Of a stretch of DNA of 64,000 nt, positions 12,688 to 39,590 are shown piece after piece. This DNA comes from Anaerolineales bacterium (lineage in GTDB: Bacteria > Chloroflexota > Anaerolineae > Anaerolineales > UBA4823): contig DAOQUL010000005.1 in the NCBI GenBank assembly GCA_035341015.1, positions 10,812-74,811 on the forward strand. Reading direction: 5' to 3'. The position numbers and the translations under genes are program-made. The notes under the pieces are model-generated. The model did not search any database and was not told where the DNA came from. It saw nothing but the letters and a program-made list of their open reading frames with translations. Each line of letters begins with the position of its first letter. Positions within the stretch are counted from its first letter, which is position 1.

Positions 12688-13206
12688 ATGTGGCCTATTG
12701 TTGGGATCTTATGTTTACTGTTGGCGGTGGTTTTATTTGTCCTTTCGGGTTATCAAAAACGCCAGCTTGGTCTGCCGGGTGGGCGAGTGATCTATGCCGA
12801 TACCAGCCGTTGGAACAAAGCCGAGAAACCGCTCTTTGATCCCGACCTGGGTCTGACAGGCAAGCCTGATTACCTGGTCGAGCAAGGCGATGTGATCATC
12901 CCGGTAGAGGTCAAATCAACGCGTGCGGTCGATGCGCCTTATGATGCCCATATTTACCAATTGGGGGCATATTGCTTGCTGGTAGAACGCACGTATGGTA
13001 AGCGCCCGCCTTATGGCATCATCAATTATCCCACGCGCACTTTTGCGGTCGATTATACGCCGGCCCTAGAAGAGGCCGTTTTGAACATCATCGGCGAGCT
13101 GCACGAAAAATCTAACCAGAAGAACCTGCCGCGCTCTCACGATGCCCCAGAGCGCTGTGCGCACTGCGGTTTTCGCAGTGTTTGCGACCAGGTGCTCAGG
13201 ATATAA
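12688..13206 (+). CDS. Cas4/DUF83-like PD-(D/E)XK nuclease core with an N-terminal TM helix
   Basis: 172 aa. TM helix WPIVGILCLLLAVVLFVL, then GKPDYLVE..IIPVEVKS (D..ExK), IYQLGAYCLL (QxxxY) and a C-terminal CAHCGFRSVC tri-Cys. Confidence 0.75.
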   Translation: MWPIVGILCLLLAVVLFVLSGYQKRQLGLPGGRVIYADTSRWNKAEKPLFDPDLGLTGKPDYLVEQGDVIIPVEVKSTRAVDAPYDAHIYQLGAYCLLVERTYGKRPPYGIINYPTRTFAVDYTPALEEAVLNIIGELHEKSNQKNLPRSHDAPERCAHCGFRSVCDQVLRI

Positions 13207-30267: not shown

Positions 30268-31863
30268 TTAAAGGCGAGGCAGGTCTGGTGGCCGAGAGGC
30301 ACCCTGGTGGTGGCGGGTCTGTTGGATGAACTCGCGGATCACATGTGCGGGAGGCGGCTGGGGGCTGCTCATGATCAGGTAACCCGGGGCCCAAAAGTCA
30401 CCGGAGGGGTTCTCGCGACCGAGGTTTGGGAAGTCAGCAAAGATGCGCTGTGAAGTTTGTTGGCGCAAGACGCGCATCAGGTAGCTGGGAGACGTGGTTG
30501 GTGCCACGCCAGCCACCCATTCAATATAGTCAGGACGTACGGCGATGTGATCCAATCGCCAACCATAAGCCAGGCAAAGCTGGGGGATCCATTCGCCCAG
30601 GCGGGCGCCCAGGTCACCCGTCAGGTAATGTTGGGGCAGGCGAGGGATCAGCACACAGGCGTAAACCAGGTTGTGCAGCCCAGGCGAGATGGGGCGCAGT
30701 TCAAGGCTCTCGTCTTGGGCTTCGACAGGCGCCGGCGAGGCGGCTGGCTGGGGTTGGGGCAGGGCTGAGGCAGGCAGCATATCGACTGCAACCTGGTTTT
30801 TGGGGGGGAGGGCTGGTGCTGGGGCAATGACCGGCGCGGCGGCTTCGGTGCTGGGAAATATCTTGGCCTGGGCACTGACCTGCGGGCTGGCAGATAATTG
30901 GATATTAAGATCTGGGCGCGGGCGGCTGATAGGCTCTTGAACCCGCCTGGAGGGGGAGGGCGGCGGAACATCTTCCAATAGCGGCTTGATGTTGGGCGGC
31001 GGTGGAAGCTGTGAAAGCGGGATGGCCAAATCGGGGCGAGGCTGGACGGGGTGCGCGCCGGGCGGTGAAGCCAGGGCGCGTGCCAATTGGCTGGCTTGGG
31101 TGCGGATCTTGCTGAAGGGGGTTTCGGCATTAAAGGCCAGCGCCAACACCATACCCTTGCCCAAGGCGGTGGCATACAACATGTATTCGGCGGCAGTGAT
31201 ATCCAGGCGCACCAGGCGCACCATATCTCCTGAGGGGCCACCCGGCCGCGAAGCGGCATCGTTGGCCCAGAAGCTGGTCACCACAGCGGCCATTTCTTGG
31301 GCGGCAGGCTGGGCTAACTGCCCGGCGTAGGCCCACAACTGACCGTCGCGTACGATCAGGGCGGCTTGGGCAGATGATTCTAATGAAAGGCGAGTGAGGT
31401 GCTGGGCGGCGCGGCTGACATCTTGCAGCCAATCCAACCCTTGTGTGTGGTTGAGCGGCGCAAATTGGGGCGGCGTTTGAGTCTCTGCACTTGAGCCCTG
31501 GTGCAAGGCCTCAGAAACGGTATCAAGCAGGTCGGGCAGGTAAAATGGCTTTGTGAGGAAGCCGTGCACGCCAGCCTGTACCAACTCAGGGTCTGAGGGG
31601 TCGTTATTGGGTGGAATGACCACCAGGTGAATTGCAGGGGATATCTTTTTGAACTCAGAGATCAGTTGGGGCAGGGTAACATCGGGTAAAAAACTATCCA
31701 GGATGGCTAAGGAAAAAGGCATGCTCTGCATGCAGTCAAGCGCTTCACTGCCGCTATCTATCAGCAGCACCTTATACAGCCCGGTTTCTTCGAGTGTTTG
31801 CTGGATCAACTCCCCAAAGCCGGGTGTTGCACTGGCAACCAGAACGGAAATCACCTCAGCCAT
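30268..31863 (-). CDS. Fusion protein: receiver-like domain, Roadblock/LC7-like region, Pro-rich linker and an IS200/IS605 TnpA (Y1)-like domain lacking the HUH histidines
   Basis: 531 aa. N-terminus VLVASATPG...AILDSFLPD...LTKPF (the receiver acidic pair is missing). Middle AALIVRDGQLWAYAG...MVLALAF. C-terminus LVYACVLIPRLPQHYLTG...HIAVRPDYIEWVAGVAPTTSPSYLMRVLRQQTSQRIF...DFWAPGYLIMS aligns to TnpA_IS200, with DHVHLL replaced by DYIEWV. Confidence 0.7.
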   Translation of the reverse strand: MAEVISVLVASATPGFGELIQQTLEETGLYKVLLIDSGSEALDCMQSMPFSLAILDSFLPDVTLPQLISEFKKISPAIHLVVIPPNNDPSDPELVQAGVHGFLTKPFYLPDLLDTVSEALHQGSSAETQTPPQFAPLNHTQGLDWLQDVSRAAQHLTRLSLESSAQAALIVRDGQLWAYAGQLAQPAAQEMAAVVTSFWANDAASRPGGPSGDMVRLVRLDITAAEYMLYATALGKGMVLALAFNAETPFSKIRTQASQLARALASPPGAHPVQPRPDLAIPLSQLPPPPNIKPLLEDVPPPSPSRRVQEPISRPRPDLNIQLSASPQVSAQAKIFPSTEAAAPVIAPAPALPPKNQVAVDMLPASALPQPQPAASPAPVEAQDESLELRPISPGLHNLVYACVLIPRLPQHYLTGDLGARLGEWIPQLCLAYGWRLDHIAVRPDYIEWVAGVAPTTSPSYLMRVLRQQTSQRIFADFPNLGRENPSGDFWAPGYLIMSSPQPPPAHVIREFIQQTRHHQGASRPPDLPRL

Positions 31864-36426: not shown

Positions 36427-36472
36427 AAAAACGATGGTAGAGCGCTGTTGGGTGAGCGCTCTACCATCGTTT
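36427..36472 (-). terminator. Intrinsic terminator after the OsmC-family gene
   Basis: AAAACGATGGTAGAGCGCT-gttgggtg-AGCGCTCTACCATCGTTTT forms a 19-bp stem 4 nt past the stop, with a U-run on the minus strand. Confidence 0.85.
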
Positions 36473-36476
36473 TGGA

Positions 36477-36896
36477 TCATTCGATCTCGACGATCGTGTA
36501 ATGGTGGGTGATGGAGCTGGCTTTTGCCAGCATAGCCTGGGCTGGGCAGTATTTGTTCTCTGAAAGCTCAATGGCGCGTTCCACTGCTTCAGGATCGATG
36601 CTGCGGCCTGTGATGACGTACTCCAACTCGATTTGGGTGAAAACTTTGGGATGCTCAGATGCTCGCTCTGCATGCACCTTGACCTCAAAATCGGTCACAT
36701 CCTGGCGTTTTTTCTGCAGGATTGAGATCACATCCATGCCGGTGCAGCCAGCTAACCCTATGGCGATCAGCTCCATGGGGCGCGGGCCATCATTATCGCC
36801 GCCCACGGCAGGGTCAGTGCCCAAGCGGACACTGAAGCCAGAATCGGCCTCGCCGCTAAAACTCATCCGGCCTTTCCAGGTAACTTTTGCGTTCAA
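36477..36896 (-). CDS. OsmC/Ohr-family peroxiredoxin-like protein
   Basis: 139 aa. GPRPMELIAIGLAGCTGMDV and ENKYCPA supply the two conserved Cys. Confidence 0.88.
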   Translation of the reverse strand: MNAKVTWKGRMSFSGEADSGFSVRLGTDPAVGGDNDGPRPMELIAIGLAGCTGMDVISILQKKRQDVTDFEVKVHAERASEHPKVFTQIELEYVITGRSIDPEAVERAIELSENKYCPAQAMLAKASSITHHYTIVEIE

Positions 36897-36909
36897 CTGT
36901 ACCTCCCGT

Positions 36910-37578
36910 TCAATTCAAAATCTTTTGGATCTCAGCTAACAGGTGGTCTTCGGGCACTGCCCCCACCACATGATTGGCCCCGTCATTGATGGTGGTCTGC
37001 GGCACACCACTGACATTGTGCCGGTCTGCCAGGTCGGGGAATTCCATTGCCTCGACCATCTCGGCCTGCACCAGGGGGTTCTCAACAGCAAGCTGATGAG
37101 CGAGCACCACGGCTCGCGGGCAGTAGGGTCAGGTAGGGGTGACGAAAACTTGTAAGAGGACAGGCTTTTTTAGCTCTTTTAGGGCCTGGCGAGTTGCGGG
37201 GGCCAGCCCTGAGTCGCGGCCCGAAACCAGGATCAGCCCCTGGATGAGCGAGCTGAATTCATAGCCGGAGGGGATGCCGGCAAAACGAACGCCGTAATCG
37301 GTCACCTGGTCGCCCTCGCGCCCGGCAACTACGATGGTGGGGGCCATGCTGACATGGTACTGGCTGGCCAGGCTTTTGTTTTCGTCCAGGTCATACACTG
37401 TTAAATGAAGCTTATCTGAGAGCGCCGTAACCTCTCCGAGCAGTTTGTGGGTTTCGTCGCACATCTCGCAGTTATCTTTTGAGCCAAAAAACAAGATTTC
37501 TACCGGGTGTTTGAGCTGGTTTGAGAAAACGTCCTTTACCTGGCCTGCAACCTCGTCGTTGAGCAATGGATTGGTCAT
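36910..37578 (-). CDS. Two-thioredoxin-fold protein disulfide oxidoreductase (PDO/glutaredoxin-like) with an in-frame TGA at the first Cys of CPYC (Sec candidate or pseudogene)
   Basis: Track ORFs 37129..37578 and 36910..37110 are in the same frame. The joined reading is ...KDNCEMCDETHKLL...LLQVFVTPT-TGA-PYCPRAVVLAHQLAVEN...MVEAMEFPDLADRHNVSGVP. This parallels Pyrococcus PDO (...VFVTPTCPYCPLAV...MVEAIEYPEWADQYNVMAVP, from memory). AAAGGAG lies upstream of the ATG at 37578. Confidence 0.7.
37100..37117 (-). promoter_or_regulatory. SECIS-like hairpin candidate 11 nt downstream of the in-frame UGA
   Basis: The mRNA reads UGA-CCCUACUGCCC-GCGAGC-CGUGGU-GCUCGC: a 6-bp stem and a 6-nt loop containing GGU. 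Flanking CUG/CAG could extend the helix. Confidence 0.3.
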
Positions 37579-37638
37579 GAATACTCCTTTTTCTATTTGA
37601 ATTCAGTCTGTGGCCCACCCGGGGCTCCGATGTCCTTA

Positions 37639-37863
37639 TCAGGTGCAGCCGCCGCCGTCGCCAAAAACCTGTCCACAGGCCGGGCAGGATAAGTTCAGCA
37701 GGCCATCGTAATCCAGGCTGCCCTGGCGGCAGATCGGACAGGGGTCGCCTGCGCGCGGCAGGCTGACTGCCTGGGCTGCTGTGTCAATGATACGGGCCGG
37801 CAGGGCGGTAGTGAGTCGGGTCTGAGCAGGTGGGTGATGGTTGGTCACAAATATTAGATGCAA
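37639..37863 (-). CDS. Small zinc-ribbon protein (hypothetical)
   Basis: 74 aa. CPICRQGSLDYDGLLNLSCPACG has two CxxC pairs, and the C-terminus is GDGGGCT. It lies 60 nt upstream of the PDO gene. Confidence 0.4.
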   Translation of the reverse strand: MHLIFVTNHHPPAQTRLTTALPARIIDTAAQAVSLPRAGDPCPICRQGSLDYDGLLNLSCPACGQVFGDGGGCT

Positions 37864-37916: not shown

Positions 37917-39590
37917 ATGAATATGCAAGAGTCAGGCAGATCAGGTTCTCCCAGGCTTTCATGGAAAAAGCTGTTTTTTTGGACCCTGTTGGCTGTATTG
38001 GCAGGCGTTTTTCTGTTCTATCCTTTTGTGGCCAGCCGTGCCAGCGCGCCGCAGCATGCAGGCGCGGCGCCAAACGCCCCCAATGATATGTTCTTGCCCA
38101 TTATCTTTAAGCTGCTTCCGGCTGAGCTGACACCAACCCCCACGCCTACTGCAACCTCTACCGATACGGCTACGCCCACGCTGACGGTCACGCCGACCCC
38201 CACGGGCACCTCAACCAATACTCAAACGCCCACGGTGACGCGCACTGGCACGCAGGCTACCCCAACCCGCACGCCGACCGTGACGGTTACGGGCACTTTG
38301 GTGTCAAACCCTGCGATGTCGGTGAAGGTTACCCCCACCGAAGCTAAGATCGGCGAACGGTTCACCTTTACAATTGTCGTAGAAAACAACGGCACTGGCC
38401 CGATCTACGGTGCCCTGGTGGCAGATTCCTTCCCCTCCTACATTGACGTAGAAACGGTGACCTCTGGACGCGGTGTGGTCAGCAAATCGGCGCACTCCTT
38501 AACGGTCAGCCTGGGTGACATTATTGGCGGTGATGAGGTTTCGATCACGGTGGTGGTCAAGGTCAATAGCGGTCTTACGAAGACAGAGACGCTGACCAAC
38601 CTGGTGACGCTGACCTATGATCAGAACAAGACGAAGACTGCCACGGTGAACTACAAGGTGGTTATCACGGGATTGCCCGGTACGGGTGAGTTGCCGTTGG
38701 ATTGGAAAGAGCGGGCGGCGGCCCAAGCGGCAGCCCAGGCCGAGCGTACGATGTTGGTCCAGGCCCTGCTGGCTGGTGTGTTAGGCTGCTTGTTGGTGCT
38801 GTACGGTTGGTGGGCGCGTAACCAGAAACAGCAAGGTGCCACATGGATCTTGGGTGTGGGCGTGCTGCTGCTGGTGGTGGGTGTGGTTTCGGGGATGGCT
38901 GCGGCGGGGGTCTTCCTTCCCAGCCCAGAAACCCCGCAGGCGTATGCCCCCGGCACGGCAACCGCCACGCAACTGACCCAGGCTGATGGCACTAACGTTC
39001 CGCCGATAGATCACCAGCCGGCCTACATTTATTCTACGCCTGAAGCAACCCCGATCGTAACGCTGCCTTCCTTCCCCATTCCCACGCCAGAGGTCTTGGT
39101 CACGCCCCAGGCGGGCGAACCCATGCCCGATACCAGCCCGGTCACGCGCATCATCATCCCGGCCCTGATGTTGGATACGGTGGTCAAGTATGTGCCATAT
39201 GATGGGCAGAGTTGGTTCATCGCTGGCTTGCGCCAGGAAGTGGCCTGGATGGGCGATACCTCTTGGCCGGGCCTGGGCAGCAACACAGGCCTGGCAGGGC
39301 ATGTCACCATCCGGGGTGGCGGCGATGGGCCGTTCCGCTACCTGGAGGAATTGCCTCCGGGCGAGTTTGTGATCCTCTATACCGAGCAGAATATGTACAC
39401 GTACCAGGTGCGCGATAAAGCGGTTGTGTCAGAGGATGACCTTTCTGTGGTTGCCGCGACCGATAAATCGCAGATCACACTCGTCACCTGCACCGAATGG
39501 GATGATGAGCGCGAAGTCTATCTATCGCGCCTGGTTGTCTTTGCTGAGCTGGTGCGCGTGGAAGAGATTGCCCGCAGCGGCAGTCGCTAA
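37917..39590 (+). CDS. Fusion of a DUF11-type surface domain carrying an LPGTG sorting signal with a C-terminal sortase domain
   Basis: Trimmed to the ATG at 37917. Signal/anchor helix, Thr/Pro linker and a DUF11-like repeat (FTFTIVVENNGTGPIYGALVADSFP). Then LPGTG, a hydrophobic helix and RNQK, then a second TM helix. The sortase domain has TGLAGH (His), ITLVTC (Cys) and SRLVV (Arg). Confidence 0.8.
   Translation: MNMQESGRSGSPRLSWKKLFFWTLLAVLAGVFLFYPFVASRASAPQHAGAAPNAPNDMFLPIIFKLLPAELTPTPTPTATSTDTATPTLTVTPTPTGTSTNTQTPTVTRTGTQATPTRTPTVTVTGTLVSNPAMSVKVTPTEAKIGERFTFTIVVENNGTGPIYGALVADSFPSYIDVETVTSGRGVVSKSAHSLTVSLGDIIGGDEVSITVVVKVNSGLTKTETLTNLVTLTYDQNKTKTATVNYKVVITGLPGTGELPLDWKERAAAQAAAQAERTMLVQALLAGVLGCLLVLYGWWARNQKQQGATWILGVGVLLLVVGVVSGMAAAGVFLPSPETPQAYAPGTATATQLTQADGTNVPPIDHQPAYIYSTPEATPIVTLPSFPIPTPEVLVTPQAGEPMPDTSPVTRIIIPALMLDTVVKYVPYDGQSWFIAGLRQEVAWMGDTSWPGLGSNTGLAGHVTIRGGGDGPFRYLEELPPGEFVILYTEQNMYTYQVRDKAVVSEDDLSVVAATDKSQITLVTCTEWDDEREVYLSRLVVFAELVRVEEIARSGSR

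Follow-up and report, generated by a model that had tools for sequence, protein, structure and literature searches.

Does the in-frame TGA that interrupts a protein disulfide oxidoreductase (PDO) gene on contig DAOQUL010000005.1 of an Anaerolineales bacterium (assembly GCA_035341015.1; the whole 64-kb stretch of 64,000 nucleotides analyzed is referred to below as the window) terminate the protein, or does it encode selenocysteine (Sec)? Two minus-strand open reading frames (ORFs), 37129..37578 and 36910..37110, lie in one frame broken only by the TGA at 37131..37129. Reading through this codon yields a product of 222 amino acid residues (aa), with the motif CEMC in its N-terminal unit (N-unit) and the sequence ...VFVTPT-[TGA]-PYCPRAVVLAHQLAVEN in its C-terminal unit (C-unit); the second unit thus contains VFVTPT-[TGA]-PYCPRAVVLAHQ. 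An earlier reading of the bare sequence, hereafter the original prediction, had described the two ORFs in a single frame and the 222-aa read-through product, the intact CEMC motif and a TGA at the position of the nucleophilic Cys of CPYC, with the Pyrococcus PDO as reference, and all of these features were recovered at the same coordinates. Its interpretation of the codon as Sec (UPYC) is now supported by a codon survey of related species, by a hairpin specific to TGA-type genes, by the agreement of this hairpin with the published model of the bacterial selenocysteine insertion sequence (SECIS), and by the substitutions found in a diverged strain. Judged from this sequence evidence, the locus is very probably one intact gene for a selenocysteine-containing PDO.

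Profile comparison, with the TGA written as Cys, assigned the read-through product to the NCBIfam equivalog TIGR02187.2 'PDO_seleno_TRX' (275.1 bits versus a cutoff of 185, E=2.9e-82), the match spanning profile positions 2-208 of 209. Pfam thioredoxin-fold models also matched, with Thioredoxin_3 at 142-217 plus a second stretch. The closest solved structure is that of Pyrococcus furiosus 1A8L (E=1.1e-43, residues 6-217), and its alignment places CQYC on CEMC and VFVTPTCPYCP exactly on the TGA site, in agreement with the position of the nucleophilic Cys. Residues C37 and C40 are invariant in the N-terminal-unit alignment of homologues. The predicted arrangement, a pair of thioredoxin folds in tandem of which the first carries CxxC and the second UPYC, is that of the family. 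Gene callers split the gene into two fragments of 149 aa and 65-66 aa. Out of 23 long ORFs in the window, 6 end in TGA, the neighbouring OsmC gene and PDO itself included, and because TGA is otherwise an ordinary stop here, any recoding of UGA must be site-specific; a scan of the 64 kb found PDO to be the sole coding region interrupted by TGA.

The identical 149-aa truncated ORF is present on 16 contigs, and in the 10 examined, representing ten different metagenome samples or assemblies (JGI, ENA and Logan; three pipelines), the codon is TGA without exception. One diverged strain (L006) differs from the window at 13 sites over the 669-nt gene, and all 13 differences, including the 6 located downstream of the TGA, are synonymous in the read-through frame, which indicates that the reading frame downstream of the TGA is under purifying selection. 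Searches with the full-length protein retrieved full-length Cys-form homologues from Anaerolineales (62-73% identity); searches with the N-terminal 149 aa returned mostly calls of 147-149 aa. All 85 of these truncated calls (58-91% identity) end in ...V[FY][VT]TPT just ahead of the active-site codon, and 120 full-length homologues have CPYC at the next position, with C in the TGA column. The codon itself was surveyed in one genome per species, scanned with the N-terminal-unit alignment only and thereby avoiding a bias to Cys codons; the counts rest on the 80 best species loci, all from Chloroflexota and mostly from Anaerolineales. At the active-site position 41 species have TGA, 29 have TGC and 10 have TGT; TAA and TAG do not occur. 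Beyond the codon, each of the 41 TGA genes continues in frame as P-[YH]-C-P...GVP...thioredoxin fold, and TGA is kept down to about 55% protein identity, with the C-terminal fold intact in each case. On these sequences, the distribution (41 TGA and 39 TGY), which answers the question posed by the original prediction about the state of this codon in homologues, is the pattern expected of Sec/Cys orthologues.

Downstream of the UGA lies a 6-bp hairpin with a CGUGGU loop, starting 11 nt after the codon at 37100-37117 as originally predicted, and this hairpin is the minimum-free-energy (MFE) fold of a 37-nt segment (-10.5 kcal/mol; fixed hairpin energy in the window, -9.1 kcal/mol). In 1998, Liu and co-workers reportedly described the same distance of 11 nt from the UGA to the minimal upper stem-loop in Escherichia coli. 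Since no indels occur after the active-site codon, each base pair could be compared between TGA and Cys genes, thus controlling for coding constraint. All six stem pairs form in 41 of 42 TGA genes versus 4 of 39 Cys genes (Fisher p=2.7e-17), with mean fixed-hairpin energies of -8.8 and -3.3 kcal/mol, respectively, so that conservation of the hairpin in relatives, on which the original prediction had made its case depend, tracks the TGA. The contrast extends to single bases: the Arg codon ends in A or G in 42/42 TGA genes and 15/39 Cys genes, loop base 21 is C in 41/42 and 15/39, loop base 24 is G in 41/42 and 18/39, and base 27 is G in 42/42 and 21/39, respectively. Only TGA genes hold the loop sequence CGUG constant at synonymous sites, and positions outside the hairpin are equally variable in the two classes. 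Within the TGA genes, pair 17-30 changes in a compensatory manner (G-C in 36, A-U in 3, C-G in 2 and G-U in 1), the partner base following even when the amino acid changes from Arg to Gln or Pro. Overall, 99.6% of cells are paired in the stem, versus 15-57% with slid partners, and none of 500 shuffles reached the observed covariation. The published bacterial SECIS model allows loops of 3-9 nt on stems of 4-16 bp, places the loop 16-37 nt from the UGA and sets an upper MFE limit of -7.5 kcal/mol; one of the first two loop bases must be G, and the base behind it is usually G or U. The hairpin in the window, with a stem of 6 bp, a loop of 6 nt whose second and third bases are G and U, a distance of 17 nt and an energy of -9.1 kcal/mol, lies within all four limits and has the expected loop bases, in keeping with the spacing and G/U-containing loop noted in the original prediction; on sequence and fold it is classified here as a bacterial SECIS.

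Sec forms and Cys forms intermingle on a rough neighbour-joining tree, and the state changes at least about 18 times. In the 48 nt behind the active-site codon, four Cys-type orthologues (L020, L031, L060 and L075) still form all six SECIS stem pairs, and L060 retains the exact Sec-type sequence; judged by their sequences, these genes look like recent TGA-to-TGY conversions carrying a fossil SECIS. Because the SECIS is common to all Sec forms and persists as a stem in four Cys forms, the simplest history would be an ancestral Sec form in which TGA was converted to TGY repeatedly, a course of events that agrees with the dynamics reported in 2006 (PMC1794560).

A number of observations weigh against the selenoprotein reading. 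The hairpin is thermodynamically not unusual when taken alone (z=-1.26, and z=-0.41 for 76 nt), and its significance derives from comparative data, not from folding energy. Compensatory change is seen in only one of the six stem pairs, the main support being the contrast with Cys-type genes. Rfam, which holds no general bacterial SECIS model, gave nothing relevant in a gathering-threshold scan of the whole window or in a permissive scan of 36900-37300. Neither the window nor the 10 kb on each side of it yielded selA, selB, selD or tRNA-Sec; the window is an origin-proximal housekeeping region (rpmH-rnpA-yidC-jag-parAB...rho-polA) in which a tRNA scan detected no tRNA gene whatever. About 1 Mb of relatives' loci contained three tRNAs only (Phe, Gly and Cys, all in L050) and no tRNA-Sec, and E. 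coli SelB and SelD probes had no match in the window or in any relative locus. We therefore infer the Sec machinery of the source organism from its relatives. Among these, SelA homologues were located about 3.3-5 kb upstream of PDO in 4 of the 80 species loci (L075, L082, L084 and L092) using a rough E. coli SelA probe, and were verified by TIGR00474 (551 bits versus a cutoff of 268). In L084 a TGA-type PDO and selA share one contig, 3.3 kb apart, and in three of the four species-genome loci with selA nearby the PDO is of the Cys type. Neither selB nor selD was adjacent in the selA neighbourhoods that were walked, and the two SelA clusters examined derive from other samples. SelA is widespread in Anaerolineae, the cultured Levilinea saccharolytica included, and a TGA-type PDO orthologue is present in the complete genome CP070639.1.

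The competing explanations differ in what they predict for the sequence beyond the TGA. As the original prediction had noted, a TGC/TGT-to-TGA nonsense mutation could have inactivated PDO and left its downstream part to decay; TGA is one substitution away from either Cys codon, Cys codons occupy the site in 39 of the 80 species, and the two called fragments are what such a pseudogene would give. The downstream 72 codons are, however, fully conserved, with 6/6 synonymous changes after the TGA in L006, the TGA has been retained in 41 species to about 55% identity, each with an intact C-terminal fold, and the hairpin is maintained at synonymous sites in TGA genes only, which makes a pseudogene very unlikely. 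Equally slight is the prospect of a split gene, in which the 149-aa N-terminal product and a 66-aa product initiated at GTG 37110 would be made separately and then assemble. There is indeed an in-frame GTG 6 codons past the TGA, and both pieces are called by gene callers; however, the 66-aa piece starts after PYCPRA and would lack the entire redox motif, P-Y-C-P-R-A between TGA and GTG is conserved as protein in 41/41 TGA genes, and no ribosome-binding site precedes GTG 37110.

A sequencing or assembly error at the TGA, also among the alternatives in the original prediction, is an a priori possibility only and of negligible probability, given that the codon is identical in 10/10 independent contigs, one of them from the strain with 13 other differences. 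Read-through of the UGA by a near-cognate tRNA (Cys/Trp), or by another route independent of a SECIS, would yield a full-length product that is selenium-free in at least some conditions. The base after the UGA is C in 42/42 genes, and UGA followed by C is a leaky termination context in E. coli; moreover, the Sec machinery of this genome is putative. Such read-through would nevertheless leave unexplained both the SelB-type SECIS hairpin confined to TGA genes and the occurrence of selA in the clade and beside the gene, and would be inefficient for an active-site residue; we regard it as distinctly improbable.

According to the selenoprotein reading, UGA codon 150 would not be read as a stop during translation. 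The hairpin starting 11 nt downstream would act as a bacterial SECIS and recruit SelB with GTP and Sec-tRNA(Sec), and this complex would insert selenocysteine at codon 150. The predicted product would comprise 222 residues in two thioredoxin folds, with CEMC in the N-unit and UPYC in the C-unit, where Sec150 would be the attacking nucleophile, forming a selenenylsulfide with Cys153. As to its redox partners, the gene neighbourhood and the analogy with the identically built N-terminal domain of AhpF suggest that PDO most likely passes reducing equivalents to OsmC and Redoxin-type proteins in defence against thiol-oxidative stress.

The OsmC gene starts 13 nt downstream of the PDO stop and is probably co-transcribed with PDO. 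A hairpin directly after it (-32.3 kcal/mol, z=-9.8) is likely to mark the end of the operon as a terminator; the scan for consensus promoters and terminators found no promoter and did not flag this hairpin, because its U run is part of the stem. The redox neighbours named in the original prediction, OsmC at 36477-36896 (PF02566) and a small ORF with a CxxC...CxxC pattern at 37639-37863, are both present. In 77 of the 80 species, OsmC and/or a gene of the Redoxin family, membrane-anchored and with a WCPPC motif, follows PDO on the same strand within 2.5 kb, and this neighbourhood holds for both Sec-type and Cys-type PDO. In several lineages, genes for an extracytoplasmic function (ECF) sigma factor and for a zf-HC2 anti-sigma factor lie ahead of the cluster. 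By analogy, the cluster points to a thiol-oxidative-stress module in which PDO would pass electrons to peroxidase-type partners, as the N-terminal domain of AhpF does to AhpC. A 95-aa AhpC-TSA call beside PDO in L011 was considered as a second truncated selenoprotein and rejected, being cut by a run of N. As a separate observation, a conserved selA - M24 peptidase - tsaD arrangement occurs in Anaerolineae (L084/L095, L075, L082, L092 and L098-L109), and in several lineages it runs directly into ECF sigma - zf-HC2 anti-sigma - PDO - OsmC, so that selA is physically linked to the PDO redox cluster. The coordinates of the features discussed are compiled in the table.

Table. Features of the PDO locus in the window (positions of the 64,000-nt stretch; all on the minus strand)
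Feature	Position	Strand	Details
Predicted selenoprotein gene, two-thioredoxin-fold protein disulfide oxidoreductase	36910..37578	-	222 codons including UGA-150; terminator TGA 36910-36912
Predicted C-unit active site U-P-Y-C	37120..37131	-	putative Sec codon UGA 37129-37131; resolving Cys codon 37120-37122
N-unit CxxC motif C-E-M-C, intact	37459..37470	-	aligns with CQYC of 1A8L
Predicted bacterial SECIS core hairpin GCGAGC-CGUGGU-GCUCGC	37100..37117	-	stem from 11 nt, loop from 17 nt after UGA
Shine-Dalgarno-like AGGAG	37584..37588	-	5 nt ahead of ATG at 37578; read from sequence
Small zinc-ribbon ORF	37639..37863	-	start TTG 37863 or GTG 37848; candidate Sec as last residue
Putative Sec codon TGA, then stop TAA	37636..37641	-	TGA 37639-37641; TAA 37636-37638; 53/53 copies
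Candidate 3'-located SECIS hairpin GCCC-CGGGU-GGGC	37613..37625	-	non-coding spacer; loop from 17 nt after small ORF TGA
OsmC-family thiol peroxidase gene	36477..36896	-	PF02566; NF008009 130 bits, just below cutoff 138
Terminator-like hairpin, perfect 19-bp inverted repeat	36428..36473	-	8-nt loop, U run at end; directly after OsmC

The small zinc-ribbon ORF upstream of PDO is itself a candidate selenoprotein gene. It is conserved immediately upstream of PDO in 50 of the 80 species, in many of them preceded by genes for an ECF sigma factor and a zinc anti-sigma factor, and no alternative form of it was found upstream of PDO in the 30 others. Its conserved C-terminal part of about 40 aa reads G-D-x-CPxC-x2-G-x-LDY[DN]G-LL-x-L-x-C-x2-CG-...-GGGC-T or ...GC-F-T. 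In 53 copies, comprising the window, the 50 species and two divergent metagenomic members, the ORF ends at TGA 53 times, and the next in-frame codon is a stop in all 53. Against this, only 37% of 329 long ORFs in the same loci end in TGA and 3% in a tandem stop, and the terminator of PDO itself is TGA in 22/80 and tandem in 2/80. A hairpin lies beyond the second stop; in most copies 15-23 nt separate the TGA from the start of its loop, and the loop begins with G[G/U] or NG[G/U] in 44/50. The consensus helix has 5 bp, and 5/5 pairs covary; 94% of cells pair, versus 27-52% when slid, double changes occur in 41 cells versus 9 ± 3 in shuffles, and 0/500 shuffles reach the observed score. The window contains 100 TGA+stop tandems. 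Three of them are accompanied by such a hairpin, and the one at the small ORF alone ends a conserved ORF. The small ORF combines a conserved UGA, a genuine stop behind it and a suitably spaced SECIS-like hairpin; its translation is predicted.

Other observations weigh against Sec in this ORF. An exhaustive search of the family gave 276 cluster representatives; among the best 150 of these, 148 stop after one shared residue, T or S, and Cys substitutes for the putative Sec in none of the 150. Some accepted selenoprotein families likewise lack Cys forms, and for that reason their absence weakens the case without closing it. The tail Cys is missing from roughly one family member in five, and the copy of the hairpin in the window is weak, with 4 bp (-5.1 kcal/mol, z=+0.5). 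In addition, a 1.2-kb contig of the window's species (L110, 1124-1168; JGI 3300026149) has AGA (Arg) for the TGA, followed by TAA and the same hairpin, which could be a rare allele or a sequencing error. Pfam and NCBIfam models gave no family match for the small ORF. Ten diverse copies, with U written as C, returned only sub-cutoff generic zinc-ribbon matches (E<=10) and no match to NF041197, NF033934, NF041114, NF041211, NF040734 or TIGR02605, and the motif was not found in the searchable literature. On balance, the comparative evidence makes the terminal TGA a probable Sec codon; whether the ORF is both a real selenoprotein and an undescribed one is an evenly poised question. In that event the operon would encode two selenoproteins, and the small ORF would be the founding member of an always-Sec family: a zinc ribbon with a Gly-rich tail ending in C-T-U or C-F-T-U, and a SECIS beyond the true stop. 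By analogy with the GCUG tail of large thioredoxin reductases and the zinc-finger Cys tail of class II ribonucleotide reductases, such a protein could provide a mobile selenenylsulfide redox tail partnering PDO.

Three other gene arrangements were observed in the window. Divergent from the small ORF, with starts about 68 nt apart and no sigma-70-like promoter found between them, is the gene of a sortase-domain protein (37917-39590, plus strand; PF04203 and CLIPPER PF01345) with a long Thr/Pro-rich low-complexity stretch (TPTPTPTATSTDTATPTLTVTPTPTG...). A 531-aa ORF (30268-31863, minus strand) combines a response-regulator receiver (PF00072) with a Y1 transposase (PF01797), an unusual fusion that is conserved at the syntenic position in a relative with 68% PDO identity. 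A stand-alone gene for a Cas4-like PD-(D/E)XK nuclease (12688-13206, plus strand; PF01930/PF12705) lies downstream of SSB and DUF3467 genes; the gene list shows it in no CRISPR or cas context.

Compared with known systems, PDO is closest to the TIGR02187 proteins with UxxC, which are listed as a selenoprotein family (2006, PMC1794560; review PMC13188914, Table 1). They share with it the curated model, the two-thioredoxin-fold architecture and a single Sec at the first position of the C-unit CxxC. The 2006 survey (PMC1794560) reported this selenoprotein family only in Carboxydothermus and Symbiobacterium, whereas the copy in the window comes from Anaerolineae (Chloroflexota). On its sequence, the window PDO is a further, mis-annotated member of this already catalogued family, and its value lies mainly in annotation: it is called as two fragments, its Anaerolineae relatives stand in NCBI records as truncated proteins named "hypothetical protein", and the Sec form is present in about half of the Anaerolineae species surveyed. 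With Sec and Cys orthologues interleaved in one clade, the family also offers a clean natural experiment in which the SECIS is visible as a Sec-only constraint on synonymous sites, and the fossil hairpin in four Cys forms illustrates repeated Sec-to-Cys conversion. The P. furiosus PDO (1A8L; also 1J08, 2AYT and 2HLS) aligns over its full length, with the N-unit CxxC and VFVTPT-CPYC-P in the C-unit, and differs in using Cys at both sites, whereas in the window gene the C-unit motif opens with UGA, accompanied by a SECIS. More distantly, the N-terminal domain of AhpF (1ZYN and 1HYU) is likewise a tandem thioredoxin-fold unit with the redox-active CxxC in its second fold, and AhpF works with a peroxidase partner, as the OsmC/Redoxin genes near PDO in 77/80 species would suggest here; unlike AhpF, the window protein is a stand-alone unit not fused to a flavoprotein reductase domain, and the similarity is weak (E about 1e-12). 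The hairpin resembles the E. coli fdhF-type SECIS and the consensus bacterial SECIS in lying within the coding sequence right after the UGA and in its small apical loop with an early G-U, but has a short 6-bp stem without an obvious lower helix or bulged U; binding of SelB is putative.

For the small ORF, C-terminal Sec has precedent in the KCU-star, UXX-star and SaoC families. KCU-star/DUF466 (NF033934), UXX-star (NF041114/NF041211) and SaoC 'Cys-Cys-COOH' (NF040734) are also small proteins in which Sec is the C-terminal residue or its neighbour, whose gene calls end at the TGA and whose SECIS necessarily lies beyond the true stop, and the 'Dual CXXC motif small protein' (NF041197) resembles the small ORF in having two CxxC motifs. 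If confirmed, the small ORF would extend the bacterial selenoproteome by a new family and, together with PDO, would exemplify a two-selenoprotein redox operon with a SECIS located after a true stop codon. It would be missed by standard gene callers and by selenoprotein searches based on Cys homologues, because its product is just one terminal residue longer than the annotated protein and no Cys form exists among the homologues compared. What sets it apart from the '-star' families with C-terminal Sec is its ending, C-T-U or C-F-T-U rather than CU, RxU or GxU.

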